This document shows positions 10,701-38,858 of a DNA stretch of 64,000 nucleotides, in pieces; position 1 is the stretch's first letter, and each line of letters begins with the position of its first letter. The DNA comes from a virus, in the IMG/VR virus record IMGVR_UViG_3300044966_000489, one strand, 5' to 3'. The notes below the pieces were generated by a model. It was not told where the DNA came from, ran no database searches, and worked only from the letters and a program-made list of their open reading frames with translations. The translations under genes were made by a program, and so were the position numbers.

Positions 10701-10704
10701 TCCT

Positions 10705-13324: not shown

Positions 13325-14042
13325 TATTACCTTACACGGAGAAATAGCAGAACAAGTAGGAAGAGAAAGTTGGAATTTAAAAGTAAATTCCATAAAGGAA
13401 GCATTGCGAGCTATTCAGGTCTTGTCTAAAGGCAAGCTCTTAAAATATCTAATAGGAGCAGCAGAAAAAAGCGTAGAGTACAAAGTGCTTGTTAATAAGA
13501 GAGAAATAATGAATCCAGAAAATATTTCTCTAGAAAAACCAGACTCTATTCTCAATTCTGAATTAGTAATGATTAATGAAAAGCTAGAAACCTTAGATAT
13601 CGTTCCAATTATTAGGGGTGCTGGTGGGGGAGGCGGAAACAATACAACCAAAGGAGTCTTAGCTTTAGTTCTTGGCGTTTTGTTAATAGCTACAGGCGTT
13701 TTTGCACCTGCTGCATTAGGCTTTGTTGCTGGTTCTACAACAAGCGCAACGATTGCAGGAGCGATGATTGGAGCAGGTATAGGATTAGCTGTAACAGGTA
13801 TTACATTATTAATGATGTCGCCTCCAAAATTTGATGATTTTAGAAAAATACAAGAAGACGGCAGCAAGCCAAACTACTTATTTGATGGACCTTCTAACAT
13901 TCTTGGAGAAGGCGGTCCAGTTCCAATTGGTTACGGTAGAATGAAAATAGGATCTCAGACAGTTGAAGTATCTGTCAATAACATTGAGTTAGATAATAAA
14001 TCAACGGCAGCAGACGTAAAAGCTCAAATAAATAATATATAA
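13317..14042 (+). CDS. Tail assembly protein gpI-like
   Basis: N-terminal ITLHGEIAEQVG (ubiquitin-like), IVPIIRGAGG, a hydrophobic Gly/Ala stretch, then NYLFDGPSN...GGPVPIGYGRMKIGSQ. Confidence 0.85.
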   Translation: MTSITLHGEIAEQVGRESWNLKVNSIKEALRAIQVLSKGKLLKYLIGAAEKSVEYKVLVNKREIMNPENISLEKPDSILNSELVMINEKLETLDIVPIIRGAGGGGGNNTTKGVLALVLGVLLIATGVFAPAALGFVAGSTTSATIAGAMIGAGIGLAVTGITLLMMSPPKFDDFRKIQEDGSKPNYLFDGPSNILGEGGPVPIGYGRMKIGSQTVEVSVNNIELDNKSTAADVKAQINNI

Positions 14043-14043
14043 A

Positions 14044-20000: not shown

Positions 20001-21414
20001 AAGCGATGACAACGGTAAGGGATTTGATTCTACTCAATATAATGCTTATTTGATAGCTGTAGATTCATTCATGTTCGCTTGGCAGTTTAACTCAAATGCA
20101 GCAACAGCAAGAAATATCTTAGACTATTATTCTTCTTTCATTGATAAAGATAATAACATAGGTAAAATTTACCCTCAAATTAGTGACCCAATTGTTATAA
20201 AACAAGAATCATCTACTCCATTATCTTTCTCTCTAGAGTCTGTATTAAAAGATGCTGATACTAGATATCTCCATTTTACAATTAATAAAACTGTACTAAC
20301 TGAAAATATATTTGATACTAGCGTAAATACGCTCCCTTCACCAGCTTATGCAATTTCTAGAAAGAGCGTAATTTATAAGCCTACTACAAACGCAAACCTA
20401 GCAGCAGGAGCTAAAGATGATAGAGTATTATCTTCAGATCCAGACGGCACTATGGCTTATTACAAACTCTCTTTACAAAATAGAGATAATATACCAAATG
20501 CATCATTATCACCGAAAATACCCACTGGCAAGAGAGCTTATGTTTTAAATGGCAATAAAATTTTTACAAGAGCTTTAGTTCCTGACGCAAATACTGTTTC
20601 TTTAAGAGCAGTAGAATCAGAAACAGCTAATGCTTTTAAGTCTAAAGCTAAAATAACAAATAGCTCTTTTGGCGAAGGAAACGAAGAGTTTTTCGACATC
20701 TCTATAACAAGATTAACTAATAGCACGTTTACTGGAAATATAAAGAGTTTAATTCCTGATTATACAAATACTTATTTAATTCCTATAAACGCCTCAAATT
20801 CAAACACTGAAGAAAATGCAAAAAGCAATTTTAATAGTTTATTAAATGATGGATTGCTCAATTCATCTTTCAATGCTATAAACGTTACTCCTGAAAACAA
20901 CTTTTCTGAACTTGGAGTCAATACTAAAAATGTTCAAATGTTGATAAATGCAGAACCAAACAATTTCACTGTTTATACTATAAATCAGCAAACAGCTAAT
21001 TCGTTTAATTTTGGTATAGCAAATTCTTCTTTCTATGCTGGAGTTCCAGTATTAGAAAATGAATCTTTGTCTATTTTCTTTACAATTGGAAGCGTCAACA
21101 AAACAAAAGCTATAAAGGTATATTGCTTTATTGGAGAAGATTTTGTAGCTAGTGAAGTAGATAAAACCCAAATAATACCGGGAGACGATAACATAATTAA
21201 GGTTACATTAAAAAATGTTCCTTATGCAAATTATTACGCCAACGCTTCTTCTTATTCTGCTGATGCATCAATAACTAATCCAACTTTCTGGAAATTCAAG
21301 AGTGCTAAAAACTTAGCTTTTGCACATTTGTCCGCAAGATCTAACAATAGATCATTTCCATTATATAATTTCCATATCCAAGCACTAGAACTATCAGTAG
21401 TAATAACTTACTAA
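14044..21414 (+). CDS. Tail tip/host-specificity protein gpJ-like (central fibre/hub) with a large internal insertion
   Basis: 2456 aa. Motifs DLLSEGPIEGL, KVKVPANYDP, WDGEFK...WTDNPAWCFYDLL, YCDELV.DG.GG.EPRFTCN, AFGCTSRGQAQRLGRW, LKPGDVI. Confidence 0.85.
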   Translation: MNNLEDFKYIKGFGGGGGGASAAPTPTAAYEDAEGFVYDGLTYNVYQFAKVKDLLSEGPIEGLLEGQYSFSGQVGDLGFKKVTYNEYPSVVGSDGESKYLRSVQWNQTPLLDSQDKYNFQQINIQATNGTPEGTSSGGEFDNVSYIRSIGERLRGPNLLASTEDETLDYQRTYRILNRECKKISLNFRISSLYVSLKYQDLKPISEGTLKIEGVTSANQSSSTFTLDPASRDVELTNGQTLDAGVGSVIRHNFKIRIRISPIYKEGYNSNSAVLDLISDKAKVIDDSKDLAVTVDTFPQIFELESKGKITQGYSKQIIFDTSSKFLSLNENENWLGWDISVLKITPEDTYSSRASFINLESITEIYSSSFRYTNSAIVTSKFNAAYFSKIPERSYDVKLLKVKVPANYDPITKTYGNTTPLSITATNSFAKTDKVITTDFFVGENNVYTNSDNVNPPITDGLIAQFDASNASLTTSTGSVTNWPNTVAGSTIKCVLGNGTYASPNGSANKPTYGSTYSEQSPNGTYGVSFTTTQKARFVYQTETSPLADASNNYTVFAVCKWHDSATNTERNRIISSYSLENTFVLGFDGKFNNAFTVGSQIYGVMPVNFYQFNRSNYWNDANDTNTYIVGTSVSNLKDVNIFWQNTNYFVRPINAVAAPKGLAINSSASTSRCTVFEILVYNKALSKSDGIKIRNWLNKKWNLISSNLSYSTSVAGSYNTNVLNVASNTYLKMPLKTLCANGQRTKAYSYAGGSLATSDYYEFDLIPQRYWKNWKTPQNFSLKDQGFCSFYCDFFIKLGSIGDGNYTLIHRSNQFNLSMTISGENVSLILTVISPNESKNYTITKALDPAKYSTTKLKENFTRISFYILPKVVKPSISYTTNASKVNNINISDRTWTNDYITVRRATADGNERALAQELKDFYLVKAVSFKEDTSYSSNINNLPETCYKYIYCNFNAASQQTGGRSSTFVPVIERRLTKEYFPDILNAEIDVLVNLEKQIQCNINISNYAAYQTLCVGALYRPATDPVWQNEINQRAQIAPLAQEALNTYNKQEYHKTFDGSSTSVSLSSSQSEIKVLIPLAAGQIYDAVNTKTGPFIPSYFITNNNQIEIFTSPAGFGGKIEGYADSIRVNQIDFDRLSLSKAFARNLFSEGLSRKTTVYDAAGVLPYSTSNDYWDGEFKTEKEWTDNPAWCFYDLLTNKRYGVGNYVTENDVDKWSLYQIAKYCDELVSDGFGGVEPRFTCNVYLQTQDDALKVLSDMASVFRGMFYYSNGFIYAINDMPEDTPIYSFTNSNVSDGNFTYESTSLKDRNSVVYIRYIDKNNFYKPAVEYVENIEAVRKFGFKETELTAFGCTSRGQAQRLGRWLLASEYNETETVSFEAGPECVYLKPGDVIKVYDYNRKYKTVGGRLNNINISGDTNVTTGILTLDRKLDFNFSGNQNYKLTILSPKYNLDPSFKDAAGDSIVTSNLDYNDYRKPLTNSFIVGSGNLITGQYYDSIRITGLAPVMASGLNVTGLSYFTGASGMSPKSITWALENSGNLNGSTDSDYDFYRVFRIQESTEGSNYTVIGSQMYHLKYAQIESGLNITPAKPPAPEASAPSRALFTLGVAEANGVIDQSKVLIEIFYDSSIKDTTIGFKIFNKAFYGSDFNPNSSSDFKFVPIDIYESYVNTVLDKSNIKGSIRIYGANINNSSPLTYVEASNSQNSNELFVSPVVAITYDDVNTSSSITLNNKVYAFTSPIDLTKAQYFQSTAPSQIQSVKPPESLSFNIPLQFIKNPNKFNNLDYPYRIAIIPEKVDTKDAFGTVYNKYLNVSNWEDYLTFDEDQTSDNIYNYKTSNVFAKYRNFSLAIDKMTFTDVGMKSTSNDFKNVDGFLLVTYDNQDADLKKSLNAILKDTRATYSIVTSQGSNRLKFTIQQDTASSFINAFYLLLMPSENIFEFGKNSINHNPDGSPLSVNDNTGKEIIDSHFITISNNQSIFNFNDLSDDNGKGFDSTQYNAYLIAVDSFMFAWQFNSNAATARNILDYYSSFIDKDNNIGKIYPQISDPIVIKQESSTPLSFSLESVLKDADTRYLHFTINKTVLTENIFDTSVNTLPSPAYAISRKSVIYKPTTNANLAAGAKDDRVLSSDPDGTMAYYKLSLQNRDNIPNASLSPKIPTGKRAYVLNGNKIFTRALVPDANTVSLRAVESETANAFKSKAKITNSSFGEGNEEFFDISITRLTNSTFTGNIKSLIPDYTNTYLIPINASNSNTEENAKSNFNSLLNDGLLNSSFNAINVTPENNFSELGVNTKNVQMLINAEPNNFTVYTINQQTANSFNFGIANSSFYAGVPVLENESLSIFFTIGSVNKTKAIKVYCFIGEDFVASEVDKTQIIPGDDNIIKVTLKNVPYANYYANASSYSADASITNPTFWKFKSAKNLAFAHLSARSNNRSFPLYNFHIQALELSVVITY

Positions 21415-21415
21415 A

Positions 21416-22114
21416 ATGAAACACTACATCGTATATTTTATAAATGGCAGTCACAAATACCTCCAATCTTCTCTCGACTTGATGGAAAATTTAGATCGCC
21501 TAAAGCTTGTAGGAATAGAGTATGAAGTTGTAGACTACATTGTACCTTTAGAAAAACACATTGACCAAAGCATATTAGAACATAGAAAATTTCTTCCTGA
21601 TGGAAACTCTATATGGAAAAAAGAAAATCTCATTGATAAAAAAGTTAAAGAAATGACTGCAAAAAGAAACACTTTATTGCAGAAGCTTGATATTGACTTC
21701 ATTATCTCTCTAGAGACTCCCAACAATAAACAAACAGAAGTCATTAAAAATAACAAAAAGTTTCTAAGAGAACTCTCTTGTAGAACTGAAATGCAACACA
21801 TTCATGATTGCGAAAAGATAAACAAGTTTAACGCCTTTCATAATATTGTTGATATACAAATTATTGACCCCGGATATGGATGCTCAGAACCTGTTCCTTG
21901 CGTCACCATCTCTCCTCCTGAAGAAACCGAATACAACTACGGCTTAACCGCTTCTGCTCATGCTGTTAGAGGCTCAAAAGGAGAGCTACTTTCTTTAACA
22001 ATGGAGAAATTAGGTTGTGGTTATATTTCAGATCCAGAGATTAAAATAAGTGGATATGAATCAGAAAGCGCAAAACATCCTATTGTAAAAGCAGTGATTG
22101 GCAATATAATGTAA
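21416..22114 (+). CDS. Hypothetical protein: tail-fibre-assembly-like helical domain plus a GxGY beta domain
   Basis: KRNTLLQKLDIDFIISLE...KKFLREL resembles phage fibre-assembly chaperones. C-terminal IIDPGYG...P.VTISPP...LGCGYISDPEIKI repeat. Confidence 0.4.
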   Translation: MKHYIVYFINGSHKYLQSSLDLMENLDRLKLVGIEYEVVDYIVPLEKHIDQSILEHRKFLPDGNSIWKKENLIDKKVKEMTAKRNTLLQKLDIDFIISLETPNNKQTEVIKNNKKFLRELSCRTEMQHIHDCEKINKFNAFHNIVDIQIIDPGYGCSEPVPCVTISPPEETEYNYGLTASAHAVRGSKGELLSLTMEKLGCGYISDPEIKISGYESESAKHPIVKAVIGNIM

Positions 22115-22117
22115 CAT

Positions 22118-22945
22118 ATGACGGATGTATTATTTTCTTTTGGCGACGAATACATATATTCTAACAACCTAGCAAACTGGTCTACAATAGAACCCAGTAA
22201 AGAAATAGAAATTATTGGCAACCCAGAGAAGTTCTCTGTTGTGCGAACTGCCGTCATTAACTACAGCAAGCCTTTTACTGTAGAATCAAGTTTATTAATT
22301 AAATTTAGCGGCACAATTAAAGATTTAATCTTAGATGGAGACACTATTGATTGCTATTTTGCTCTTTACTATGCTGCATTAATTAATGACATTACTGAAT
22401 CTGGATCTGGATACAAAGTAAATGAATATGTAACTATTGGTAAAAATTCTTACTTTGAATCGTCCATAGATAAAAACCAAAAAGCTGTCCTTCAAATTAA
22501 AGCTGTCAATAGTGATGGCGGTATTACTGAACTCCATTTAATTAACAATGGAAAATTTACTCAAAATTTTACTGAAGCAGAATTAGAAGGCGGATCTGGT
22601 AAAGGCGCAAAAGTAAGCTTGATTTTGGGTAAAGACAACAAGAAGGCTCTTAAGTTTTTTTCTGTATTGGACGTAAAGCGAGAAAACGCTTCTACTCTTG
22701 TAATGTTAAATGAAAAGATTAAAGACGACTTCCTTACAGGAGAAGTCTATATAAAACGATACCGCATTACATTAAATAAGGCTACGGGCAAGGAATACCT
22801 GAATCAAGCCTTCATTGTAAAGGTAGACAAGACTCCTTTTCTTAATCTACCATTAGCCAAAGACAACAATATAGAGCAAATCTATAATCAGGCTATACTA
22901 ACTATAGATTCTAAGATTAAAGAATTATCTGCTGGCGTAAAGTAA
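22118..22945 (+). CDS. Hypothetical virion-associated protein with a GxGY beta domain
   Basis: 275 aa. ITESGSGYKVNE...GGITELHLINNG...GGSGKGA. Its 3' end overlaps the convergent TMP 3' end by 21 nt. Confidence 0.4.
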   Translation: MTDVLFSFGDEYIYSNNLANWSTIEPSKEIEIIGNPEKFSVVRTAVINYSKPFTVESSLLIKFSGTIKDLILDGDTIDCYFALYYAALINDITESGSGYKVNEYVTIGKNSYFESSIDKNQKAVLQIKAVNSDGGITELHLINNGKFTQNFTEAELEGGSGKGAKVSLILGKDNKKALKFFSVLDVKRENASTLVMLNEKIKDDFLTGEVYIKRYRITLNKATGKEYLNQAFIVKVDKTPFLNLPLAKDNNIEQIYNQAILTIDSKIKELSAGVK

Positions 22946-25900
22946 TCCTCCGGGTCTCTTCTGCTCGACCAATACTTCAACGACTTTGCTTCTGAGTAGT
23001 TCAGCGAGTTTAGCATTGTTTTGAATATTGTTCTGATCTTTATTAGTATTGGAGCCACCATTTTGAGTGGTAGCATTAGCTTCAGAAGTGACTTCGCCGC
23101 TTTGAGCAACATTAATTGAAATGTTATTAACTACAGACATTCCAGATTCTTGATTTGCTCCAGCAGCAGAAATTTTACCTGACTCAGCTTGGGTGATGTC
23201 ATTGCCCTTGGAAAGGTTTTCATTCAATGTATTAAGAGCAGCGACTAGTTCGGTCACGCTAGATTCAGGAGTATTTTGACCTGCTGTATAACTTGTACCA
23301 ACCATTCCTCCGCTGGCATACTTAGGCAATGTACCAGTATTCAATTGATTCATGAAGTCTCTGCCGTACATATCTACAGCTTTCTTGTTCATGACATATT
23401 CGCCGCCCATTAACAAGGCAGGAATATTATCTTTACCTGTTGATCCACCGCCAGCAAATCTAGCTATATAGCCGCCATTTGACCTAAGATTTCTTGCATA
23501 TTGAGCGTTTAATTGAGCTTGAGTTAAGTTGCCTCCGGGTTCTAGACCTCTTGCAGCAGATGTTGCTGCATTAGTTCTCATATTAGCTGCTCCAACCGTA
23601 AGACCAGCAGCACCTAATTGAACAGCAGCAGCAGTTAAACCTGAATAGAAAGTGCTATTTACTTGATTTTTGTAATTTTTAATAGCTTGCTGTTTGTCTT
23701 TCTCATACTGCGATCTGTCTTGCAAGTATTGATCAAGTTTTTCATAGCGATCTTGTCTTAATCTATTTTGAGGATTATTCTCGTCAGTTAAAGCTGCGGC
23801 TGATAGTCTAGAATCAACAGCAAACTCCCCAGAAGTTGGACGATCAGGATTATCATATAAGAACTCATTTTGTAATGGACCCATTGAGAACCCACCTACT
23901 GCATATTTGGGAACAAGTCCGCCATTCAAGGCTCTTAAATAATCAGAACCGTATTTTTTAACAGAAGACTTCTTGATAACGTATTCGCCGCCACTCATCA
24001 TAGCGGGTACATCATCTTTCATTCCAGAGCCACCAACAACCATACCTCCAGAATTATAACCTCTGATTAATCCACCATCTTTTCTGCCAGTTGCAGCTTT
24101 ACCAAAAGCAAATAAAGCATCAACTCCCATCTCTAAAGACTTATCAAGCATTCTATTTAAGATGCCTTGGAACATATCTCTAAATGCATCCTTAAGAGTT
24201 TTAGTTCCTTTGATAGCTTCACCAAATGCACTAGCAATACCTGATTTGAAATCAGTTTGGAAAGTGTCGATCAATTGACCAGTATCTCTAGCAAAATCGG
24301 CTCTATTGTAAGTAGTATTTTTTTCTGTTATAGCTCCAATAGCTACTCTTCCTTGACGAGCTTCATTTTCAATTCTAGCATTAGCAAAAGCCGCTCTTTC
24401 ATCCTTAAAGAAAGTTTCTCCAAACGAACCTTTGTAATATAAATTATACAACTCTTCTGCGACCTTACCTTCTTGCTCTAAAGTTTTCTTTCTTAGCTCA
24501 GTCTGAAGTTTAATTAGGTCTTCTCTTTTCTTTGTATCATTTAGGTCTTCTTTTAAAAGGTTATTTACTTTTTCGTTAAGATCGACAAGCTGTTTATCAT
24601 TTTCTAATCTAGCCAAAAGCAAATTATTGATACTATCTAGATTTGCTCTTCCTTGAGCTAATTGAGTTGGTAAATTTCTTTTAGCACCGCCTTGATCTGC
24701 TAAACCATATTTATCAATGATATCTTGTAAAGAAGGCGCAGTTGATTTATTGCCTACTGACATTAAAGGAGAAGCCGAGTCTAATCTTCTTAACTCTTCT
24801 TGTGCAGATTTAATAGACTTTACAGTCTCCTCTGCCATAGAGACTTTAAAATCTCTATTTATATCTTGAGTTAATCCTTTATAGGTTCCTGAGAGGTTAA
24901 TCTCTGGACGACCAATTGATTTTTCGCGTGAAGCGATTAATTGCTCTAATCTTTTTTGATTTCTTAATTGATCTTCATAGGAAGAGCCTAGATCTTCCTG
25001 CAACACAACTGCATTATTTATAGTTTCTCTAGAAGTACCAGTCCCGTAATAGCCTTTTCCATAGCTAACACCTCCAGTAATATTCCCATAATCATCTCTT
25101 GAAACTTTAGATGGATCTCCAATTAAATTTTTATAAGCTTCTGTAAAAGCTCCTTCTGCTCCGGTTACTGTTACTAAATCAAAACTCTTAAAATAATCTT
25201 GTAATTTTTTAATCTCTTTTTCTCTTGCTAGTCTTATTCCTGCTTCGGCGTTGTTAGTCTGCATAGATATGGACCCTTCTGTATCTCTTAAATTTTGTGA
25301 CGCAGCTATTCTATTCAATATTGCTTGTCTATCTGCTGGAGATACGTCAGCAGGAAGCTTATTAAACATTTCGGATTCAAGAGCGTTTCTTTTTGTAGCA
25401 ACTCCTAATTTGTTAATAACTCCCTGTAATGAAGTAGTTAAGCTATCTAATTTGCTGCCTACTTGTTCTGTTATAACTCTATTAAAGTTCTCATTTATAG
25501 TAGTTGGCAATGTTTTTTCTAAAATAGAATTTTGATCTTGTGTTAGGTCATTTAAGAATCTAGCTTCTTGTTGTAATACGTCAAGATAGTTCCCCATATT
25601 CTCTAACTTAAACTGAGAAGTAATTTGATCTAAAGCAGTTTTAACTGCGCCTTCTTTTGCTTGGTCAAAAGCCGTTCCTAAAGCAGTACCGGCTGTTGGT
25701 TTACCCATTTGAATTTCAGTAACTCTGCGAGCTAAATCTACGCTTTCTCTTATTTGCTGCACTCTGCCAGCAATAGCTGTTCCTACCAAAGGATTTAAAT
25801 CAGAAGACACTTGATTATTAAAAGCACTTCCACTGGCACTGGGTCCAATGAATCCGCTTGGTTGACCAATGCTTCTATTTAATTGTAATTGATTAGTTAA

Positions 25901-28900
25901 TACATCAAGCAATTTAAAAGCACTAGATCCCCTTTGAGCAGCATTTCCAGCAACGTTAGTTTGTCTAAATTCTGAAACTAATTCAGAAATATTATCAAAA
26001 AGTTCAGAAACCCCCGCTTTACCAGTGGAACTCAAAGCTTGTGCGCCACCAGCAAAAGAAAGTCTTTGATTTAGCTCCAAAGACTGTTTTTGATATTCTC
26101 TTTGGGCTTCTTGAATTTGAATATCTATATCGCCTTGAGCTTTTATTTCGGCGAGAGTATTTTGAAACTCTCCAAAAGATACTTCAAGAGTTTGCACAAG
26201 AACATCTCTTTCTTCTGGCTTGAATTGAGAAAATCCTCTTATGTTATTTATTAAATTTGTTTGTATATCTCCTATATTACCACCAGAATTTATTTGTTTT
26301 AATGATTCAGCAATTAAAGGAGTTAATTTCTGAATTTGATTTTGGAAGACGGCTCTTTCTTGTTGAATAGCATTTTCAGACTTGGCACCCTCAATAGCAG
26401 GAATAACTTTTGATCTAGCTTCTTCTGATTTTTTAATTATCGTATTTGAGAAAGAATCTAAAAGTTTATTAGAAGCCTCTTGAATTTTAGAATTTTGTCT
26501 AGAAGTTATCTCATTTAGATCTAATTGATTTTGGATGTCCGATTTTGAAGACTCGCTAATAAATGGAGTAGCTGATTCTAAAAGACCTTTAACTCTAGCT
26601 CTTTGGATTGAAACCGCGCCTTCTGCTTGAATTTTATTTATCTCTCTAATAGTTTGAGCGCGATTTTTTTCTATATCAATTTGATTAGAGATTTGAAGAT
26701 TGATGCTATTGTATTGAGAATTTAAAGATTTAAGAACTTCTTCATTTTCTTTAAGTCTCTTAGTGTTTTCTGCTAAAATTTCTCCAAGGTTTTTCGATCT
26801 TTTGGCGAAATCAAAAACGTCTATTCCTGCTTTTTTGAGCGAGTCGAATAAAGAACTTAATGCTACAGTATCAAATTCAGCAAAAGCTTTGTCAAGCTGA
26901 TCAATTATTTCTTCAGGAATAACTGTATTCTGTTTTAACTGAGCTTTTATATTTTCTACGCTCTCTTTATTAACCATTGGTTGTGCGCCTATGCGGGAAC
27001 CATAAGGCCCAATAGTCTCTTGACTATAAATAATTGCTTGAGATTTTAAAGAATCAATAAATTTAGAAAAGTCTGCTGCGGCATTTTCTCCAGTAAATTT
27101 TTTAGTTATATCTTCTGATCTAATAGAAGAGGTGAATAATCTATTAAACACTTCTTGATCTTTTGGCTTTAAACTACTTCTACCCAAAAAAGAAGATTGC
27201 TTTTCAATAAATTGCGTGATAGCTAATTGTCGCTCTAAATTCTTTTGCGTATTGGCCATTTCTTTATTTACTTCACCAATAGCTTCAGTAACCTTACTTA
27301 TCTCCGTCCCTGCGGCTAACACTTTACTTCTGAACTGTTCAGGAATACTATTTAAAGCTTCTGTTAAATTATTTTGAAACTTTAATAGTGCTTCAGGCTT
27401 TGTCTTAGGATCATTTAAAGCGTTTTGTAAACCTTCTAAAGAAGTAGAGTAATTTTGAGCGGCACCAGAAAACTCAGCAGATCTTTCTTTTGTCTCTCCC
27501 AAAGATTTATTAATTTTATCAATAGCCTCTTCAGCTTTGGCATCTTTTAATTTAATAAGAGCAGATCCAGCTCCTAAAATTACTCCTGCTATTGCTCCGT
27601 AAGGGCCAAACTGTGCCCCTAAGCCAGCAAAAGAAGCTATGTCTCCTAAGCCAGAAGCTGCGGCTCTTCCTGTTTTATTTTCTGGAGATATGAATTGTCC
27701 ACCAATATTTGAAGCTACACTACCAATTAAACCAATTTGAGTGCCAAGCCCTCTAACGTATCTATCTGCTTGCCCTCCAGACGCAAAACTTGCTCTTGAA
27801 AATACAGGAGCTTGAGCCTGTCTTATATTTTCTTGCGCTTGTCTTCGTCCTTCTCTAGCAGCAGATAATTCTTCTCTTGCTTTTTTTCTTAGTTCAGATT
27901 GTTGTTTTCTTAACTCTTCTAATCTAGCTACTTGTTCTGGAGACGCAGCAACAGGAGAGCTTGTAACAATACCAAATTGATCTCTAGTTGTTTTCCCTAC
28001 TAAAGGACCAGTAGCAGTGCCTTGAAGCTTTAAAGTCGTTTTATTTACATTTGTAAATGTTCTTTCAATCTCATCGGATATTGCTTTTTGACTCTTTTTG
28101 AAGTCTTTTGGTATTTGTCCTATCTGTTGAGAATAAGAAGCGGCAGCAGAAGCATTTGATTTAATTAAAGTATCAGAACTACCTTTTAAAGTTCTAAGGC
28201 TTCCTGCAACTTCTTTTAAAGCAGTACTAAGAGTTCCAAAAGCAGCAATTAATATAAAAGCATCTGCGCCCCCAAACTCAGCAAAATTAGGAATATGTCC
28301 TCTTGCAGACATTCCTTTTGTCTTAGGGTCTATTCCAGCTTTCTCTGCCAAGCCAATTCCATTATTAAGAGATCCTTCTGTAGAATTATAAACACCCAAT
28401 CCCATTGGATTGAAGCTAGTCTTTAATTTATCGCTTCTACCTAATCTAACCTGAGAAGCAGAATATCCAGCAGACATCTCTCTATTCATTGCCTCCATAA
28501 CTGGATTAAAATTAGGAATATAACCTGAAGCAAATCTAAAATCATCTTCGTATCCGAGACTACCTAAAGAAGATTTTCTCTTAGAAGCTAGGCCGCTTCC
28601 TAGATTAAACATTCCTGTATCAACTATACTAACTTTACCACCTTTAGTAAAAATAGAGCTTAAAATTCTGTCAATTTGAGCTTCTGCATCTTTGTTGTCT
28701 TTTGATTCAATAGACTTTAGTAATTTCTCATAATTTCTTCTAGAAATCTTCGACAAGATACCTTCAGCTACTTGATTATACATCATATTGCCAAGGTTTT
28801 GAGTTAAATCAACTGCCTCCATTCTACCTCCTGCATTAATTTGAGAAGTAGCTCTGTCGGCTATGATTTCTGCGAGTTGGACAAATCCTCTTCTTTCTCC

Positions 28901-31900
28901 AGTATATTCGTCTAAATTTTCAGAAATTTCTTGTGCTGTTTTTCCAGAAAAAATCTCTTTATAAATAGCACTCTTTTGTATAGCTTTTGACAATGCTCCG
29001 TAAATCTTAGGAGTTTCAAAAATTGGGTTTAATTGTTCTGCATCAATCATCTGGCCAAGTTCTTGTGAAGCTAAGTATTCATTTGCTACATTAGATTTTG
29101 TAGATGATTCGTTATCTGGGAATTGTTTTACTCCTAGATTTCCTCTTAATGCAGAAAATGTTCCAAAAAATCCGGGTTTTCCTAATTGCATTCTAGCAAA
29201 GTTAGGAATATGACCCGATGAATAATTAGATACGAAATCTCTAAACTTTGAAGCTTTGCCCTCATCAATAATAGATTTGTTTTGCTTATAAGTAGAAATG
29301 ATGAAGTTCATCAACTCGGGAGTCAGAGAACCTTGAATTTCTTTTAAATAAGAACCCACTTGCTCTGCGTTAGCTGCCCAAACGCTTGCCATTGATTTAG
29401 CATGAGCTTCTCCTTCTGTTCTATTAACTTGGTGAGCGGCTTCATGAAAAACAGTATCTAATATTTCTCTAGAATAGATGTCTCTAAATTTACCAACTGA
29501 TTTTATTTTCTTTCCTTGTTTAGCTTTTTCTTGAGAAATCTTTCTAATTCTATCTATAACTGTCTCTACATGAGCAAATGGTTCAACTATAGATTTCGTA
29601 CCTACTTCTTTTGATGAAGCAGTATTTAAACCCATCCAATTAGCTCCAACAGCTAAACCTCTAAATGAAGCATTAGCCATTCTTGGATCAAAAATCTCAG
29701 AAGCCTGTCCAATTGTTTGTTCAAAAACGCTTTTTAAAGCAGCACCAAAATTTTGGAATTTAGGATTTCCAGCAATACTCTCCATTGTTCCTTTAGGCAA
29801 AGAAGAAGAAACATCAAGAAGCTCAAGATCAGAACCCATTTGATAAGAAGGGACATTCCTAACGCTATCTTCTTGAGCGCGTTTTAATTGTGCAGCTAAA
29901 TCCTGTACGGCAGATTTTGCCATTTTGCCTAATGGCCCTCTTAACTCAGTTCTGTCAGTATTCCAAGGATAATTTGGATCACCTGCACCAACATTACTCC
30001 TAACATTAAACATTAAACTTTTAGGAATATAGTCTACTCCTTCTACTTTATAGTTAGCATACTTCATTCCCTCTGACAGCATGGGAATCTGAGCGTATCC
30101 ATAAGTTTTTTGAGGATCTCCTTGAGGATCAAACAATATATCTACTTCTCCACCTTCTGCCGTTAAAGTTCTTTGTACTGAAGATTTACTAGGATCAAAT
30201 TTAGAAAAATAATATTTTCTATAGCTAGGATCTTCATTTCTAGTATTAATTGTTTGCCTCAATAAACCAGAAGAAGCAGTAGTAAATTTAAATGGAAGTT
30301 CTGCTACTTTTCCTGCTCTATTCTCTAAATAACTTCCATAAGATATATAACCCTCTTTAGAAGGAGAAGCAGCGAAAGTGGTTCCCATTATTGGAGTATT
30401 CTTTTTTTCTGGATTGACTTCTCTCCAAAACATTTTTAACCCATCAAAATTTAAATCACCTCTTGGTTGATTAAAAAGAGTTTCATCTAAACTTATTTTG
30501 CCCTTTTGTATGAAATTATTCCATCCTTCTGGGGTTCCAGAAACAATTGTTCTTATCTTTCTACCATTTATTTCTTTTATAGTATCAAGAAGGAACTTCT
30601 TGGAACCCATGAAAATAGAAGCTTTTCCCATTCCAAATCCAGATAATCCTTTATTACCTCCTTCATTTCCTGTTTGAGCATATGGTAAAAATTTAGTGAA
30701 TACATCTTCTGGAGACATTCCAGTGCCAACATCACTAATTGCAAACTCATTTGGCTTTCCATATCCGCTTACTCCAATGAAAACTCCCTTTTCTTGTCCT
30801 GATTGACCGTGAGCGACAGCGTTTTGCAAAGACTCTCTAAATACTGTTTCGGGATTAATATCCATTTGTGCTAAATTAATTCCCATTAATCTAGCAGTAT
30901 TTACTGTTTGAAAGTCTTTTTGAGCAAAATTTGGTATAAAACCTTTTGAAAATCCAGTACTAAGTTGACTTACCTTTTTTTCTTGAGCCTTAAAATGCTC
31001 TGCCATTTGTAGGCCGAATTTCTTCTTAACTTTACCAATAAACGATCTTACAGCATCATCATTATTTCTTAATTTATAATCTCCATATTGATCTCCAAAT
31101 CCGGGGAAAAACTGTCTTACATTTCCAATATTTCCCCCAATTACGTCAAAATCTCCAACACCACCACCAGATTGATCTCTTGTGTAATTAGCGGCTAAAT
31201 TAGTAGAAGCTTCAAAAATAGTACCAGCAAGAACAGAATAATTTTTACCTGCCTTATTAAAAAATTCATCAACAGAAGCATCCGAATATTCTCCGGGTCT
31301 AATATAATTAGCAATTTGTTTTGTTGTTCTGCGAGAGAAATCTGCTGTTTGTGTAATTAGATTAGTTTTTTCTTCGTTTTGAGAAGACGAATTTAAAGCA
31401 TAAGATTTAATCTTAAAAGCTCTTCCGTCTTCTTTTCTCTTAGTTAATATTTCTTCGGTCTTTTCATCTGCAAATAGTTCCTTATTTTTTGCATCTAAAT
31501 CAAATACAAGCATTGAAGCAGGAGGAACATAAGGATCATAAACTTGCTTAATTCCTTCTTTGATATTTTCTTGACCTGCTATTTTCTTTCCGGGTGCAAA
31601 GTCGCGTCTAATAGCGTTTAAATCTGATATAGCTCCAGATTTCCATCTTGGATCATCTTTTAAAAGACTATCTGGAACATACTTTCTAATGTCTCCATAA
31701 GTAGCCCCTCTTCTCACAAATGTATTTAAATCATTTGCAGTAAAAGCAGAACCATCAGTTTTATAAAAACCTTTATCTTGACTCCAAGCTGCCGATGTTC
31801 CAGTTGTAATTTGAGAAAGAGAAACGGGAGCAGATAGACCAGACCCAAGCCACCAATCATTATCTCCATAAGAAGGATTGGTTAAAGGTTTTGGAGCAAA

Positions 31901-33796
31901 ATTAGGAATGAATCCTTTAGCCATGTAAGGATTAATTCCATTTTTAGCCATGGATTTTGAAGCTAATTGAGTTGCTGCGCGAGATCCTTGAGGAGGAAGA
32001 ATATAAGGTTGAGCGAAACCGGGAATATATTTAACTGTTTCGGCAGTATTCATTATTCCGCCAATTGACTTTGGAGCAGCAACTACTCTACCGGGAGTAT
32101 AACCACCTTGCATAGCTCCAACCATCTCTGCGGCTTGCTGTTTAGCTGGAATATACCCTTCTGCGCTTCTTCTTCCAACAATAGTATTCTTTTCAGAAAC
32201 TCTTAAGCCTGAAGCTAAAAATCTACCGCCTATATCAATAGAAGAATTTTTAATCTGTTCTGCTAAAGCAGCTTGTTCTATAAGAGTTTGTTTTATTTGC
32301 TGCTCTACTTGCAAGCGAGTTCTAGATCCAGAAATAATGTCTTTAATTAGATCGGGATTATCAGAAAGAATTTTACCAATTTCTGATTGTAAAACAGCTT
32401 GTTGTCTTCCAAGAGTATTAAGTCCCAAAAGATTTTTAGTTGCATCTCCAGCGAATTTAGTAAAGTTAGCTAATAGTTTTCCAATTGCAAACGCTCCAAT
32501 ACCTAAACCGGGACCAGTTATAAAATTAGTAACACCACTTAATACACCAGTCGCAATTTTTTCGCCAACTCCCTCTGCGTCTTTTTCATTGTAAGACTCT
32601 AAGCTTGAATTAATATAGCCCAAAACTTTTCTAATTCCGGGTCCAACGCTTGCTTCTCCAATTGAGGTAGCAAATTTTGTAAAATTAATAGTTGTTTCAT
32701 TAAGCAAAGCAGAAAGACTTTCGTTTAATGCTTTATTCTTTAAGATAGCTTCGTCTGCTGCCTTAGAGGAAGTTCTTGTAGCTTCTGCGAATGCAGAATT
32801 TTGTTTTGATACGTCTGCTAATGCCGCTTTTAAAATGTTAATTTGATAAACACCACCAACAAGTTCAGCAACTTGAGATTTAATAACAGGATTTAAATTT
32901 TGAAATGACTGAGCCAAGTTTTCAATAACTTTAATCGTTGGCAAAGCATTTCCTGAAATATCAGTAACAGCAATACCAAAGTCTTTCAAATCACTGATAA
33001 CTTGAGGTCTTTCTATTCTTGTAAAAATAGTCTTTAAAGCGTTACCGATTACAGCACCACCACGGGCAGTTGTTTGCTGAACAGAAGTAACAATACCTAA
33101 CAATTCATCAAAACTAACTCCAGCTTCGCTGGCTGAAGAACCTACACGCTGAATAGCTTCGGACAAGTCTCTAGAACTAACTGCGAATTTAGCGTCAACG
33201 GCGGCTAACTTATTTACTACATCAGTTGTAGTGAGAGCTTCTTTTGTAAATGAGTTTACAGCAGCAGTAAGAGCCTCAGTACTAGAAACGACATCAAGAC
33301 CAGAAAGACGAGTTAAGATAAGAGCATCTCTTGTTCTCTTTAATGTCTCTTCTAATCCCAAACCTTGTCTTGAAAATTCTGTTGCAGCACTGGCTACATC
33401 TTTAAAAGCCGATCCAGTATTTTTTGCTACACTAAATAACTGATCTCCAAATTGCTTGATACCCTTAGAAGATGTATTTAATACTACATTGATATCAGTA
33501 AGAGACTTTTCTACTTCGATAGTAGTATTTACTAAAGAGGAAAATGACTTTTGAACTGCAAAAATAAGACCAGCAGAAGCTCCGAATGCGACTACACGGG
33601 CATTTGAAGCTTCCAAAGACTTTTGGAATTCATTAGCTAAACCAGTAATTTTACCCAGTGGTTGAGAAAAATTTCTTGTATTTAGAGAAAGATTACTCTT
33701 GCTCTGGATACGGTTCAACGCCGACAACACATCTTTTTCAAGTTGCGCGGCAGCAAATGTCGCTGAAATGGGAATATTTCCTGCTGATGTAGCCAT
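22925..33796 (-). CDS. Tail tape measure protein (TP901-type N-terminal domain) carrying internal enzyme-like cargo domains
   Basis: 3623 aa. N-terminal TMP domain (ATEFSRQG...VDAKFAVSSRDL...TARGGAVIGNALKTIF), long helical regions and hydrophobic segments. Two C-terminal D[DN][VI]PA[ML][ML]xGGEYV repeats typical of TMPs. Lies downstream of tube and chaperone genes. Confidence 0.9.
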   Translation of the reverse strand: MATSAGNIPISATFAAAQLEKDVLSALNRIQSKSNLSLNTRNFSQPLGKITGLANEFQKSLEASNARVVAFGASAGLIFAVQKSFSSLVNTTIEVEKSLTDINVVLNTSSKGIKQFGDQLFSVAKNTGSAFKDVASAATEFSRQGLGLEETLKRTRDALILTRLSGLDVVSSTEALTAAVNSFTKEALTTTDVVNKLAAVDAKFAVSSRDLSEAIQRVGSSASEAGVSFDELLGIVTSVQQTTARGGAVIGNALKTIFTRIERPQVISDLKDFGIAVTDISGNALPTIKVIENLAQSFQNLNPVIKSQVAELVGGVYQINILKAALADVSKQNSAFAEATRTSSKAADEAILKNKALNESLSALLNETTINFTKFATSIGEASVGPGIRKVLGYINSSLESYNEKDAEGVGEKIATGVLSGVTNFITGPGLGIGAFAIGKLLANFTKFAGDATKNLLGLNTLGRQQAVLQSEIGKILSDNPDLIKDIISGSRTRLQVEQQIKQTLIEQAALAEQIKNSSIDIGGRFLASGLRVSEKNTIVGRRSAEGYIPAKQQAAEMVGAMQGGYTPGRVVAAPKSIGGIMNTAETVKYIPGFAQPYILPPQGSRAATQLASKSMAKNGINPYMAKGFIPNFAPKPLTNPSYGDNDWWLGSGLSAPVSLSQITTGTSAAWSQDKGFYKTDGSAFTANDLNTFVRRGATYGDIRKYVPDSLLKDDPRWKSGAISDLNAIRRDFAPGKKIAGQENIKEGIKQVYDPYVPPASMLVFDLDAKNKELFADEKTEEILTKRKEDGRAFKIKSYALNSSSQNEEKTNLITQTADFSRRTTKQIANYIRPGEYSDASVDEFFNKAGKNYSVLAGTIFEASTNLAANYTRDQSGGGVGDFDVIGGNIGNVRQFFPGFGDQYGDYKLRNNDDAVRSFIGKVKKKFGLQMAEHFKAQEKKVSQLSTGFSKGFIPNFAQKDFQTVNTARLMGINLAQMDINPETVFRESLQNAVAHGQSGQEKGVFIGVSGYGKPNEFAISDVGTGMSPEDVFTKFLPYAQTGNEGGNKGLSGFGMGKASIFMGSKKFLLDTIKEINGRKIRTIVSGTPEGWNNFIQKGKISLDETLFNQPRGDLNFDGLKMFWREVNPEKKNTPIMGTTFAASPSKEGYISYGSYLENRAGKVAELPFKFTTASSGLLRQTINTRNEDPSYRKYYFSKFDPSKSSVQRTLTAEGGEVDILFDPQGDPQKTYGYAQIPMLSEGMKYANYKVEGVDYIPKSLMFNVRSNVGAGDPNYPWNTDRTELRGPLGKMAKSAVQDLAAQLKRAQEDSVRNVPSYQMGSDLELLDVSSSLPKGTMESIAGNPKFQNFGAALKSVFEQTIGQASEIFDPRMANASFRGLAVGANWMGLNTASSKEVGTKSIVEPFAHVETVIDRIRKISQEKAKQGKKIKSVGKFRDIYSREILDTVFHEAAHQVNRTEGEAHAKSMASVWAANAEQVGSYLKEIQGSLTPELMNFIISTYKQNKSIIDEGKASKFRDFVSNYSSGHIPNFARMQLGKPGFFGTFSALRGNLGVKQFPDNESSTKSNVANEYLASQELGQMIDAEQLNPIFETPKIYGALSKAIQKSAIYKEIFSGKTAQEISENLDEYTGERRGFVQLAEIIADRATSQINAGGRMEAVDLTQNLGNMMYNQVAEGILSKISRRNYEKLLKSIESKDNKDAEAQIDRILSSIFTKGGKVSIVDTGMFNLGSGLASKRKSSLGSLGYEDDFRFASGYIPNFNPVMEAMNREMSAGYSASQVRLGRSDKLKTSFNPMGLGVYNSTEGSLNNGIGLAEKAGIDPKTKGMSARGHIPNFAEFGGADAFILIAAFGTLSTALKEVAGSLRTLKGSSDTLIKSNASAAASYSQQIGQIPKDFKKSQKAISDEIERTFTNVNKTTLKLQGTATGPLVGKTTRDQFGIVTSSPVAASPEQVARLEELRKQQSELRKKAREELSAAREGRRQAQENIRQAQAPVFSRASFASGGQADRYVRGLGTQIGLIGSVASNIGGQFISPENKTGRAAASGLGDIASFAGLGAQFGPYGAIAGVILGAGSALIKLKDAKAEEAIDKINKSLGETKERSAEFSGAAQNYSTSLEGLQNALNDPKTKPEALLKFQNNLTEALNSIPEQFRSKVLAAGTEISKVTEAIGEVNKEMANTQKNLERQLAITQFIEKQSSFLGRSSLKPKDQEVFNRLFTSSIRSEDITKKFTGENAAADFSKFIDSLKSQAIIYSQETIGPYGSRIGAQPMVNKESVENIKAQLKQNTVIPEEIIDQLDKAFAEFDTVALSSLFDSLKKAGIDVFDFAKRSKNLGEILAENTKRLKENEEVLKSLNSQYNSINLQISNQIDIEKNRAQTIREINKIQAEGAVSIQRARVKGLLESATPFISESSKSDIQNQLDLNEITSRQNSKIQEASNKLLDSFSNTIIKKSEEARSKVIPAIEGAKSENAIQQERAVFQNQIQKLTPLIAESLKQINSGGNIGDIQTNLINNIRGFSQFKPEERDVLVQTLEVSFGEFQNTLAEIKAQGDIDIQIQEAQREYQKQSLELNQRLSFAGGAQALSSTGKAGVSELFDNISELVSEFRQTNVAGNAAQRGSSAFKLLDVLTNQLQLNRSIGQPSGFIGPSASGSAFNNQVSSDLNPLVGTAIAGRVQQIRESVDLARRVTEIQMGKPTAGTALGTAFDQAKEGAVKTALDQITSQFKLENMGNYLDVLQQEARFLNDLTQDQNSILEKTLPTTINENFNRVITEQVGSKLDSLTTSLQGVINKLGVATKRNALESEMFNKLPADVSPADRQAILNRIAASQNLRDTEGSISMQTNNAEAGIRLAREKEIKKLQDYFKSFDLVTVTGAEGAFTEAYKNLIGDPSKVSRDDYGNITGGVSYGKGYYGTGTSRETINNAVVLQEDLGSSYEDQLRNQKRLEQLIASREKSIGRPEINLSGTYKGLTQDINRDFKVSMAEETVKSIKSAQEELRRLDSASPLMSVGNKSTAPSLQDIIDKYGLADQGGAKRNLPTQLAQGRANLDSINNLLLARLENDKQLVDLNEKVNNLLKEDLNDTKKREDLIKLQTELRKKTLEQEGKVAEELYNLYYKGSFGETFFKDERAAFANARIENEARQGRVAIGAITEKNTTYNRADFARDTGQLIDTFQTDFKSGIASAFGEAIKGTKTLKDAFRDMFQGILNRMLDKSLEMGVDALFAFGKAATGRKDGGLIRGYNSGGMVVGGSGMKDDVPAMMSGGEYVIKKSSVKKYGSDYLRALNGGLVPKYAVGGFSMGPLQNEFLYDNPDRPTSGEFAVDSRLSAAALTDENNPQNRLRQDRYEKLDQYLQDRSQYEKDKQQAIKNYKNQVNSTFYSGLTAAAVQLGAAGLTVGAANMRTNAATSAARGLEPGGNLTQAQLNAQYARNLRSNGGYIARFAGGGSTGKDNIPALLMGGEYVMNKKAVDMYGRDFMNQLNTGTLPKYASGGMVGTSYTAGQNTPESSVTELVAALNTLNENLSKGNDITQAESGKISAAGANQESGMSVVNNISINVAQSGEVTSEANATTQNGGSNTNKDQNNIQNNAKLAELLRSKVVEVLVEQKRPGGLLYASR
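28283..31915 (-). repeat. Five copies of the G-[FYH]-I-P-N-F peptide linker inside the TMP
   Basis: GFIPNF 31898-31915 (aa 628), GFIPNF 30926-30943 (aa 952), GHIPNF 29198-29215 (aa 1528), GYIPNF 28508-28525 (aa 1758), GHIPNF 28283-28300 (aa 1833). Degenerate GYIPA near 32147-32158 (aa 547). Confidence 0.9.
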
Positions 33797-35948: not shown

Positions 35949-37136
35949 TTATGCGTCGAGAGGCAATGTCTCAAGCATGAACAATCCTCTGTCATTTTGT
36001 TGAGGAGAGCCAACTTGAGTAGAGAAGTTTAGCGTGACCTGTTTATTGGCTCCGATTGAAGAAGAGAAGTCTTGTGAATCCAAGTTAAGTCTCTTGAGTA
36101 CATATCCAACGCCTTCATCAGGATTCAAATCACTGTTAGCAACAGCAGGAGCAGCGAGTTTGATAACTGCGTCATAGAGACCATCTACATTTACTAGATC
36201 GACCAAGTTACCAGTAGTAAGATCTTGTACCAAAGCTGTAACAGAAAGAGTTACAGTAACTGGGAAATCAATTTCTCTTGAATAAGCATATCTGCTTCCG
36301 ATCTTTTGCAATGGAGTTCTATTTAGACCCATTGAGATTGAGAAGTTTTGAATAGCGGCAGAAGTAGTTAAATCAGTACCGCCATAAGATTGACCCTGAG
36401 TCTTTGATAAAGAGAATGATATATCTCCATGTCTAAGAGCAGAAATCTTTCCCAAAGCGTTTTCACCATTAGGATTGCCTGTAGCTTGAGGTAGAATAAA
36501 CGCACCTCCAGCAATAGCTCCAGCAGGAGTAACACCGGGAGCAGCACCTGAATTTCCATTGCTGAAATTCATGTTTAAGCACTCCAAGCTGACAGAAGTG
36601 GTTGGGAAGTCTCCTACAGCAGCGTTAATAGAGTAATTAGTTAAGAAACCGTTTCCTAATCCAATTGTGCTTCCTATTGTTTGGTTAGCAACAGTATCAT
36701 TAGCAAAAGAAGAAGCATCATTACCTTCAGAAACTGTTCTGATGAAATAATTTTTAGTATTAATGAATCCGCTGGTTAGAATTCCAGATAAGCAAGATTG
36801 AGTAGCATTTGCGCTAGTGATATCAGAAATAGTAGTAATTCCATTGCTAATTACTGAAAATCCAAGGTTCTTTTCGTTGCCCATGTCTGTTAGCAAATAA
36901 GTGAAATCAACTCCTACGGTGGGTTGCTCTAGAATAATACGATCAATAGCAGCTAGATCGCCGAATTGGTTAACGTCTCTTCTTGCAATATTGAAATTAT
37001 AATTACAAGATTGGACGCGAGAAAACTGGTTAATATATAAATTTCCAGTTTGTGGTGGTGCAGAAGCCGCTACGTCAACAATGTCTTTTGTGTTGAATAG
37101 TGCTTCTGATTGGTAAATTACACGATTTCTTGGCAT
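35949..37136 (-). CDS. Major tail tube protein (probable)
   Basis: 395 aa, beta-rich, with internal duplication. Lies between neck genes and chaperone/TMP genes, has an AAAGGA Shine-Dalgarno and its own terminator, and its codons are visibly richer in C-ending forms, consistent with high expression. Confidence 0.65.
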   Translation of the reverse strand: MPRNRVIYQSEALFNTKDIVDVAASAPPQTGNLYINQFSRVQSCNYNFNIARRDVNQFGDLAAIDRIILEQPTVGVDFTYLLTDMGNEKNLGFSVISNGITTISDITSANATQSCLSGILTSGFINTKNYFIRTVSEGNDASSFANDTVANQTIGSTIGLGNGFLTNYSINAAVGDFPTTSVSLECLNMNFSNGNSGAAPGVTPAGAIAGGAFILPQATGNPNGENALGKISALRHGDISFSLSKTQGQSYGGTDLTTSAAIQNFSISMGLNRTPLQKIGSRYAYSREIDFPVTVTLSVTALVQDLTTGNLVDLVNVDGLYDAVIKLAAPAVANSDLNPDEGVGYVLKRLNLDSQDFSSSIGANKQVTLNFSTQVGSPQQNDRGLFMLETLPLDA

Positions 37137-37196: not shown

Positions 37197-38858
37197 TTAT
37201 ATGATTTCTTGTCTTTGCATCCAATAATCTCCCTGCATAAATACACCTTTAGTGGAATCTTGAGGAGAACTCATTTGACCTCCAAAGGTTAAAGTAGCTG
37301 TTTTGTTAGCTCCAATTGAGGAACTAAAGTCTAAAGATTCTAACTGCGCTGATTTAATTAAATATCTTACACCAGTTATCTTACCATAACTTGAAACTTC
37401 AGTTCCGGGTTTAATAAAAGAGACTGAAGTATTGAATTTAATATCTTTACTAGAAACTACATCAACTAAATTACCAGTTGCTAGTTCTGATACCAAAACA
37501 TTGACAGAGAAAGAGTAGCTAACTGGAAAAGTAATTTCTTTTGCGAAATTAAAAGTATTTCCAAGTTTACTTAAAGATTCTCTAGATAAAGCCATTGATA
37601 AACTGAAACTTTGAGCGTTTAAAGAAGAAGACCTTGTATCAATTCCTAATCCTCCAGAAGCATAAAATGGAGTTAAATCAAGGATGATGCCTCCGGGTCT
37701 AAATGCAGATATATTTTGTGATAGGTCTGATCTGCTGTTAAAATCTGGAAGAGAATATGTCCCATTTACTCTTGTTCCTTCTTCGTCTATTGAAGGCAAT
37801 GGATAACGTCTACCAGCAGAACTAGATTTAAAATCGTTGTCTCCAGTAACTATAGAAAAATTTCTAGCTTCATTACTAATTGCCACATTTGGGATGTCTC
37901 CTACTGCTGCATTAATAGCGTAATTTGTAATAACAGTATTTCCAAAAGCGATAATGGCTTGATCCAGTGTGCCGGTTGTCGCAACACTTACGTCATTTCC
38001 TTGAGGCACAGTTCTTACAAACAAATTTTTTTCGTCACTTGCTTTTGTAAGTATTCCGCTTAAACAGGTTATATCTACAATACTAGAAGTACCTTCTGGA
38101 TAGTTATTTGCTAAAGTTGGAGAAAAAGTTGATTGATTGCTCGTACCGCCAATCCCGACATTAACTGGAATATTAACAATAGAAACTGTGGTTGCGATTT
38201 GAGAATTATTTATATAAATAACTCCTGATCCTTTATCAGTTATTGAGACTCCTGTTGCTTGACCCGCATATAATCCTCCAGTAGCCACGCCAAAAGAAAG
38301 TACAGGAGGCATATTTCCACCGGCTTGTGGCAATGTTAAAGTAAATGAATTTAAATAACCTTGACCGCCATCAGCAATAGAAGCCGCAGTAATTCCAAAT
38401 TCAGATTGCCCAGAAGCAGTAATTGTTAAATTTACAGCAGCACTTCTCTTCAAAGAAGTCGTAGTGAAACCTAATTCTTCTTCATTCTTAAGACCGTTTT
38501 GATAGTAATTAAAATCAATATTTATTACTGGTTGCTCTATAATGATTTTGTCTATTGCGGCTAAATTTCCAAATTGATTTACATCTCTTCTCGTAATATT
38601 AAAGTTGTAATTAATACTTTGTATACGATCTAAATTAGCTAAATTTGGAAGCAAACCTGCTTGCATAGTAGCAAGACTAGCCGTGGTGGTTCCTGCTCCA
38701 GAGGCTAAAGTTCTTGTAGCAAGAGGATCTAATTGATTTAATTTTTGAGTAGGAACATTTACATTGCTTCCTGTAACAAACTTATAGTGACCAGATATGG
38801 CTGGCGAAGGGCCAACGTATAATGCTTCATTTTGGTAAATTACTCTATTTCTTGGCAT
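37197..38858 (-). CDS. Second tail tube paralog with an inserted GxGY beta domain
   Basis: 553 aa. Same N-terminus MPRNRVIYQ, and shares YNFNIxRRDVNQFGxLAAID, CLSGILT, TNYxINAAVGDxP and DFSSSIGANK with the 395-aa protein. Confidence 0.65.
   Translation of the reverse strand: MPRNRVIYQNEALYVGPSPAISGHYKFVTGSNVNVPTQKLNQLDPLATRTLASGAGTTTASLATMQAGLLPNLANLDRIQSINYNFNITRRDVNQFGNLAAIDKIIIEQPVINIDFNYYQNGLKNEEELGFTTTSLKRSAAVNLTITASGQSEFGITAASIADGGQGYLNSFTLTLPQAGGNMPPVLSFGVATGGLYAGQATGVSITDKGSGVIYINNSQIATTVSIVNIPVNVGIGGTSNQSTFSPTLANNYPEGTSSIVDITCLSGILTKASDEKNLFVRTVPQGNDVSVATTGTLDQAIIAFGNTVITNYAINAAVGDIPNVAISNEARNFSIVTGDNDFKSSSAGRRYPLPSIDEEGTRVNGTYSLPDFNSRSDLSQNISAFRPGGIILDLTPFYASGGLGIDTRSSSLNAQSFSLSMALSRESLSKLGNTFNFAKEITFPVSYSFSVNVLVSELATGNLVDVVSSKDIKFNTSVSFIKPGTEVSSYGKITGVRYLIKSAQLESLDFSSSIGANKTATLTFGGQMSSPQDSTKGVFMQGDYWMQRQEII

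Follow-up and report, generated by a model that had tools for sequence, protein, structure and literature searches.

Exchangeable enzyme-like domains bounded by a repeated hexapeptide within a siphophage tape measure protein

Introduction

Polyvalent proteins are large multi-enzyme proteins encoded in virion gene regions, which combine domains such as an MPTase (HExxH), a truncated kinase, GNAT, ART and ParB, shuffle these domains among relatives and have been proposed to be injected together with the DNA (Iyer et al. 2017, PMC5512222). Their carriage is assigned to the head, often via MuF, and the words "tape", "GHKL" and "linker" are absent from the paper describing them (PMC5512222). For tape measure proteins (TMPs), a fused enzyme is known from Thermus phage P23-45, whose giant 5002-aa TMP gp96 is fused to the virion RNA polymerase that transcribes the pre-early genes. 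Hereby, a single fixed N-terminal enzyme serves the phage's own transcription, and neither a variable array nor a repeated joint is described (PMC10770324). Enzyme-TMP fusion thus has precedent, and an enzyme joined to a TMP can be active ahead of phage gene expression. In Tme and Sle1 of Streptomyces CIS, a TMP-related scaffold in a tail-like tube carries a functional domain that varies, being an endonuclease in Tme, with toxin-antitoxin pairing in one case (PMC11126660, PMC13277306). Unlike the protein described here, these belong to headless bacterial contractile systems and carry a single C-terminal domain rather than an internal multi-domain train. A literature search found no publication on motif-jointed TMP arrays.

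The TMP analyzed here works like a polyvalent protein, but on a TMP scaffold with internal domains, each bounded by one hexapeptide as a fixed joint. Several unrelated conflict-type catalytic domains are combined in one large protein encoded among virion genes, and the architecture is variable, with 51 arrangements in 172 distinct cassettes. The hub domains MuF, LPD, DarB-type methylase/helicase and Kinase-PolyVal gave no Pfam match in this TMP or in the homologs of its kinase-like block, a search that divergent members may escape.

Results and Discussion

Genomic setting of the tape measure protein

The window, a stretch of 64,000 nucleotides, is part of the IMG/VR virus record IMGVR_UViG_3300044966_000489 (74,912 bases, completeness estimate 47%); the same TMP protein cluster is also found on a 168-kb contig. 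The very long TMP gene (Table 1) encodes the PhageMin_Tail/TMP domain PF10145 (E 5e-28, Pfam scan), and its product matches several PHROG TMP families. Since lambda M/L/K/I/J-like tail-tip genes lie nearby on the opposite strand and the proteins scanned from the record gave zero matches to any sheath family, we read the phage as a siphophage, its TMP being part of a tail module. Cultured phages match nothing beyond the N-terminal TMP domain, and bracket module A is absent from every cultured phage in the collection searched.

The tail-tip block (10146-22945, + strand) and the TMP gene are antiparallel and converge. In other relatives (e.g. L062-L089) the gene following the TMP lies on the same strand, so the tail-tip block has been inverted or replaced. 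Lambda has a single gpK gene; the two gpK-like JAB/NlpC proteins of this phage are candidate TMP-processing proteases. Two probable assembly chaperones are encoded downstream of the unannotated paralog pair. The C-terminal module of the TMP is homologous to residues 722-788 of lambda gpH (E 7e-6), and some TMPs of the family (P0051, P0056, P0062 and others) also contain a PF01832 glucosaminidase.

Table 1. Features of the TMP gene and its surroundings; positions refer to the window, residue numbers to the TMP.
Feature	Position	Strand	Remarks
Tape measure protein (TMP) gene	22925..33796	-	3623 aa, zero cysteine
N-terminal TMP scaffold, conserved	32159..33796	-	aa 1-546; PF10145 at aa 124-310
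Gly/Ala-rich weakly hydrophobic stretch before cassette	32468..32524	-	aa 425-443; in 12/14 homologs tested
Bracket module A	31898..32158	-	aa 547-633 including two motifs; small alpha/beta domain, family-wide, not cargo
Motif copy 0, degenerate GYIPAK	32141..32158	-	aa 547; canonical in many homologs
Motif copy 1	31898..31915	-	aa 628-633
Cargo 1 (block B), PD-(D/E)xK-like nuclease candidate	30944..31897	-	aa 634-951; by residue pattern
Motif copy 2, crossover point	30926..30943	-	aa 952-957
Cargo 2, Hsp90/HtpG-like GHKL ATPase + HExxH zincin-like domain	29216..30925	-	aa 958-1527
HExxH motif	29432..29446	-	aa 1451-1455; invariant in 50-sequence alignment
Motif copy 3, crossover point	29198..29215	-	aa 1528-1533
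Cargo 3, protein-kinase-like domain	28526..29197	-	aa 1534-1757
Motif copy 4, crossover point	28508..28525	-	aa 1758-1763
Bracket module E	28301..28507	-	aa 1764-1832; conserved closing module
Motif copy 5, cassette end	28283..28300	-	aa 1833-1838
Weakly hydrophobic stretch after cassette	28202..28285	-	aa 1838-1865
Second hydrophobic stretch after cassette	27548..27610	-	aa 2063-2083
C-terminal lambda-gpH-type module 1	23864..24085	-	aa 3238-3311; ends GLVPKYAVGG, joint look-alike
C-terminal lambda-gpH-type module 2	23282..23482	-	aa 3439-3505
Lambda-gpK-like genes, tandem pair	11826-12584, 12578-13324	+	both JAB HSH...D + NlpC/P60 DC, motifs intact
Unannotated paralog pair, 39-42% identical	37197-38858, 35949-37136	-	position expected for tail tube genes

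A hexapeptide joint and two bracket modules

A preliminary description of this DNA had placed the hexapeptide G[FYH][IV]PNF at five positions of the TMP, a degenerate GYIPA ahead of them and discrete blocks in between; motif positions and block coordinates all proved correct (Table 1). From composition, 2.2e-4 matches per protein would be expected by chance. The motif occurs in no other ORF of the 74,912-base record, 345 times in the TMPs of related loci vs 0 times in 313,840 aa of their other frames, and in all of the 119 homologs listed. Over 367 distinct contexts the consensus extends to [SA]-x-G-[FYH]-[IV]-P-N-[FY], followed in 85% of them by Ala, Ser or Asn. According to AlphaFold models from a 75-sequence alignment, bracket A and block B fold confidently, and the linkers between the folded domains, in which motifs 1 and 2 lie, are modelled with low confidence. 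In a distant TMP clade (P0278-P0280) a further pair of motifs, 88 aa apart, is found near the C-terminus (~aa 3080-3460).

Differing linker codons had been taken as evidence for conservation at the protein level. Synonymous variation between the copies is indeed present, but the copies also retain near-identity over 14-18 nt and act as crossover points. Most motif codons are used at close to background frequencies, the exception being Pro CCT with 75% vs 39% (the sequences are not independent). The peptide is thus constrained; the 18 bases encoding it also supply microhomology.

Of the train of blocks described earlier only the three central ones are cargo, whereas aa 547-627 and 1764-1832 belong to family-wide brackets. 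Among 172 distinct cassettes, chosen for having both brackets, the motif is found at the end of A in 171 and at the start of E in 165. An alignment of A with E extends over 98% of their length, with a similarity that is non-significant once the motifs are trimmed; bracket E is probably a distant paralog of bracket A. Neither bracket gave a profile match beyond 8 residues to gpH, pb2 or the TMP's own C-terminal module. The hydrophobic segments said to flank the cassette do exist (aa 425-443, 1838-1865 and 2063-2083), but with Kyte-Doolittle values of 1.46-1.56 they are weak and leave the topology of the TMP unfixed. The cassette itself is richer in aromatics and proline than the helical TMP flanks.

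Three enzyme-like cargo blocks

In block B, the residues E862, D884, D906, K908 and K922 are 89-99% conserved in 113 sequences, and an AlphaFold model places the conserved E...D...(D/E)xK residues on one helix and two short strands. Fold searches with the 423-aa multi-domain model yielded no significant match that would confirm a restriction-endonuclease core, and the block B profile is weakly linked (E 0.1) to the clearer REase-like cargos of relatives. The proposed nuclease thus stands at the level of PD-(D/E)xK-type motifs and not of the fold, and we regard a nuclease identity of block B as fairly likely.

The GHKL and HExxH assignments for cargo 2 are well supported. The GHKL residues E988, N992, D1022, G1024, G1026, G1055 and K1058 are in place, the Bergerat motifs ExxxN, DxGxG, GxxGxG/K and TGT are invariant in 50 sequences, and the GHKL profile matches HtpG/Hsp90 (E 5e-13); the HExxH domain is zincin-like and a putative metallopeptidase (MPTase). 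Both parts are present at the same spacing in 141 of 150 database matches and therefore form one module. Nearly all of these matches are in giant non-TMP proteins, mostly of 1000-5800 aa and devoid of the hexapeptide; an Hsp90-like GHKL domain fused to HExxH is a common module of giant phage proteins. The non-TMP carriers (P0122-P0270; L123:10001-16948; L124:10001-17542) are nearly cysteine-free. Two of them were checked, and on its phage-like contig each closes a run of genes on one strand; one of the two, which shares the module with the present TMP, carries LPD38, a polyvalent-type hub domain seen in this non-TMP carrier only.

Cargo 3 keeps the kinase order of Gly loop, beta3 Lys, helix-C Glu, catalytic Asp...Asn and DFG-like Asp, with K1557, E1573, D1663, N1670, D1726 and G1728 invariant in 12 homologs. 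The catalytic loop has a 2-residue insert, and the PDB matches are individually non-significant (best E 0.14) but mostly kinases. Judged by these ordered residues, the earlier kinase assignment is probable and a kinase fold very likely. The domain stops ~30 aa past its DFG-like motif, much as polyvalent proteins contain kinases that are truncated (PMC5512222).

Exchange of cargo at the joint

The idea that the motif marks domain boundaries and serves as a join point for swapping predicts conserved flanks around blocks of varying number and identity. This is what we observe: five TMPs (P0001-P0005) are 98-100% identical across aa 1-540, yet carry five different loads, so homologous TMPs clearly differ in content. 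DNA alignments of relatives end at aa 958-963 or 1533 and restart at 1755-1760. In comparison with the related locus L046, 18/60 nt are identical before motif 2 and 58/60 after it; the values are 60/60 and 16/60 for motif 3 and 19/60 and 57/60 for motif 4. DNA identity is thus turned on and off inside the motif codons, which identifies the motif as the exchange joint. The alignments show related phages to add, drop or exchange whole predicted domains in frame at the hexapeptide coding sequence, and the load hence turns over much faster than the scaffold. Exchange also reaches across larger distances: a TMP with an 84%-identical scaffold has a GHKL block of 98% identity, a kinase block is 58% identical between TMPs with 43%-identical scaffolds, and cargo moved between distant scaffolds takes the first, second or third slot. 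The exact recombination joint represents a rare clean case of domain shuffling in a TMP, a process for which a recent survey failed to obtain confirmation in these proteins (PMC10684548).

A census of the 172 cassettes comprises 340 blocks, 1-9 per cassette, in 74 BLAST clusters; the number of families is lower than that of clusters, and the choice of query sequences biases the sample. Only ~6 of the 74 have a Pfam name. Matches in relatives include SNase (E 2e-9), PcfJ (3e-7), GNAT (8e-6) and DUF7178 (3e-21), with weaker ones to ParB and HTH; ART-like and many REase-like blocks were recognized by eye only. GNAT-like cargo, the commonest non-nuclease cargo of the relatives and absent from the window's own TMP, has its best solved-structure match in AcrVA5 (PDB 6IUF, E 0.002; PMC13131331), a likeness of the GNAT-type fold that carries no anti-CRISPR inference. 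It occurs in up to three tandem divergent copies (P0003:1091-1703 and relatives). A long block in P0037 (641-1319) apparently consists of three tandem cargo copies joined by degenerate motifs, so that there are more domains than a strict motif count suggests.

When blocks were assigned manually, 163/172 cassettes had a nuclease-like block in first place, and in multi-block cassettes nuclease-like blocks are found in 57/65 first slots vs 29/168 later ones. Such a bias, reminiscent of a homing-type element, and tandem duplications such as the three GNAT-like copies in P0003 could also be accounted for if the domains were largely passengers, the motif being a structural repeat that tolerates insertions and the slot being filled by nuclease-driven or neutral recombination without benefit. 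We consider this very unlikely, as the catalytic residues are invariant across divergent copies, the insertions are always in frame and always between the brackets, the Pfam scans detected no Hint/intein family, the blocks are mutually unrelated, and the load is like that of polyvalent proteins (PMC5512222).

No cargo-matched immunity genes were seen adjoining the TMP in related loci, the neighbours being constant whatever the cargo; toxic domains would therefore need another route of inactivation in the producer cell. Orphan cassettes or motifs outside TMPs were not found in the flanks examined (up to 10 kb). A polymorphic toxin system was rejected, since variation is confined to internal domains, with a conserved C-terminus, and adjoining immunity genes and orphan cassettes are missing from these flanks.

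A proposed model for delivery of the cargo

While architecture and swapping are solid, delivery, activity and cutting are inferred as follows. We favor as probable a polyvalent-type effector package that was grafted into the TMP and is delivered at infection. Two fixed brackets flank a series of enzyme domains, and the same hexapeptide closes every one of them. As a stretch of the TMP chain, the cargo would be carried inside the tail, probably in an extended state, since the tube could not hold several folded copies. Leaving the tail together with the TMP at infection, it would arrive at the cytoplasmic face of the inner membrane, where it would fold; nuclease, kinase, acetylase and ATP-driven GHKL/peptidase might then act on host DNA and proteins before phage gene expression, for host takeover or counter-defence. 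The enzyme classes concerned require ATP, acetyl-CoA or nucleic acid, from which we infer cytoplasmic action. Ejection of the cargo is suggested by the behavior of other TMPs, which are ejected and span the envelope, lambda gpH* forming a trans-envelope channel (PMC12617516). The cargo contains only 7 cysteines in 85,165 residues, which fits extracellular carriage but proves nothing.

Alternatively, ejected cargo could act in the periplasm or on the envelope, as muralytic TMP domains do. TMP peptidoglycan hydrolases are well known (PMC12617516), the PF01832 glucosaminidase of some relatives is of this kind, and envelope peptides could be the substrate of the HExxH domain. Kinase, GHKL, GNAT and DNA nucleases, on the other hand, lack periplasmic cofactors or substrates, and none of the 74 cassette clusters belonged to a wall-hydrolase family that could be recognized, so that an envelope target is hardly plausible. 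We assign an equally slim chance to cargo whose targets are rival phages or mobile elements residing in the cell, and not host machinery or defences. A load dominated by nucleases would suit that role, which has been discussed for polyvalent proteins (PMC5512222), and fast turnover fits any arms race; the delivery step would be the same as in the favored reading, with only the target differing.

Within the effector-package model, the motif would be a recognition signal: either a protease site that frees the domains or otherwise a chaperone or threading signal, the domains then staying tethered to the TMP channel. Release by a protease cutting at the motif is a tentative proposal. Small residues follow the joint, a point for cleavage. 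T5 pb2 is cut after R1127 in SFVPR/AEGG, which splits off an enzymatic fragment (PMC10038345), and this site resembles GFVPNFA and GLVPKYAVGG; the joint shares 3-4 residues with it but lacks the P1 Arg, and the likeness was noticed post hoc. Lambda gpH and T5 pb2 are moreover cut once near the C-terminus, whereas the joint described here is internal and has neither Arg nor GG.

Cleavage could also have the opposite consequence, namely excision of the cassette during tail assembly, with the domains being used late in the producer cell or discarded instead of delivered. Lambda gpH and T5 pb2 are cleaved at assembly (PMC12617516, PMC10038345), and two gpK-like candidate proteases are encoded in the record. 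In line with excision, the cassette varies from 678 to 1377 aa among 18 close relatives and the rest of the TMP from 2278 to 2426 aa without compensation; thus, unless the tails differ in length by ~30%, the cargo does not contribute to the ruler. However, an internal cut would split the ruler in two, the cut fragments of lambda and T5 remain in the virion, a late function requires no fusion to a TMP, and the near-absence of cysteine from cargo and non-TMP GHKL carriers suits extracellular carriage. We therefore judge excision to be quite unlikely and retain delivery at infection as the preferred reading.

If delivery holds true, long-tailed phages would inject many ready-made enzymes through the tail, beyond the head route. 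The joint provides a precise rule for excising candidate effectors as expressible domains for anti-defence or takeover screens, and the 74 clusters from a small sample are already bounded by it. Two old questions become testable: whether tail length is increased by globular inserts, and which protease cuts TMPs at which site. A broader reading, in which the TMP is a general polyprotein injector of widespread uncultured siphophages and the hexapeptide both crossover point and protease release signal, appears rather unlikely at present; if true, it would open a large library from which pre-early enzymes for anti-defence and takeover could be mined directly.

Two further observations concern individual family members. 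In L099 (8378-11413) the TMP frame ends just past bracket E (1012 aa) and the next ORF lies on the same strand, reflecting either a split gene or an assembly error. Two short contigs were binned with CPR bacteria, L033 in a Baikal Paceibacterota MAG and L042 in a Nomurabacteria MAG; L033 is 61% identical to the present TMP across bracket A and block B, and the binning could be erroneous or a clue to the host.
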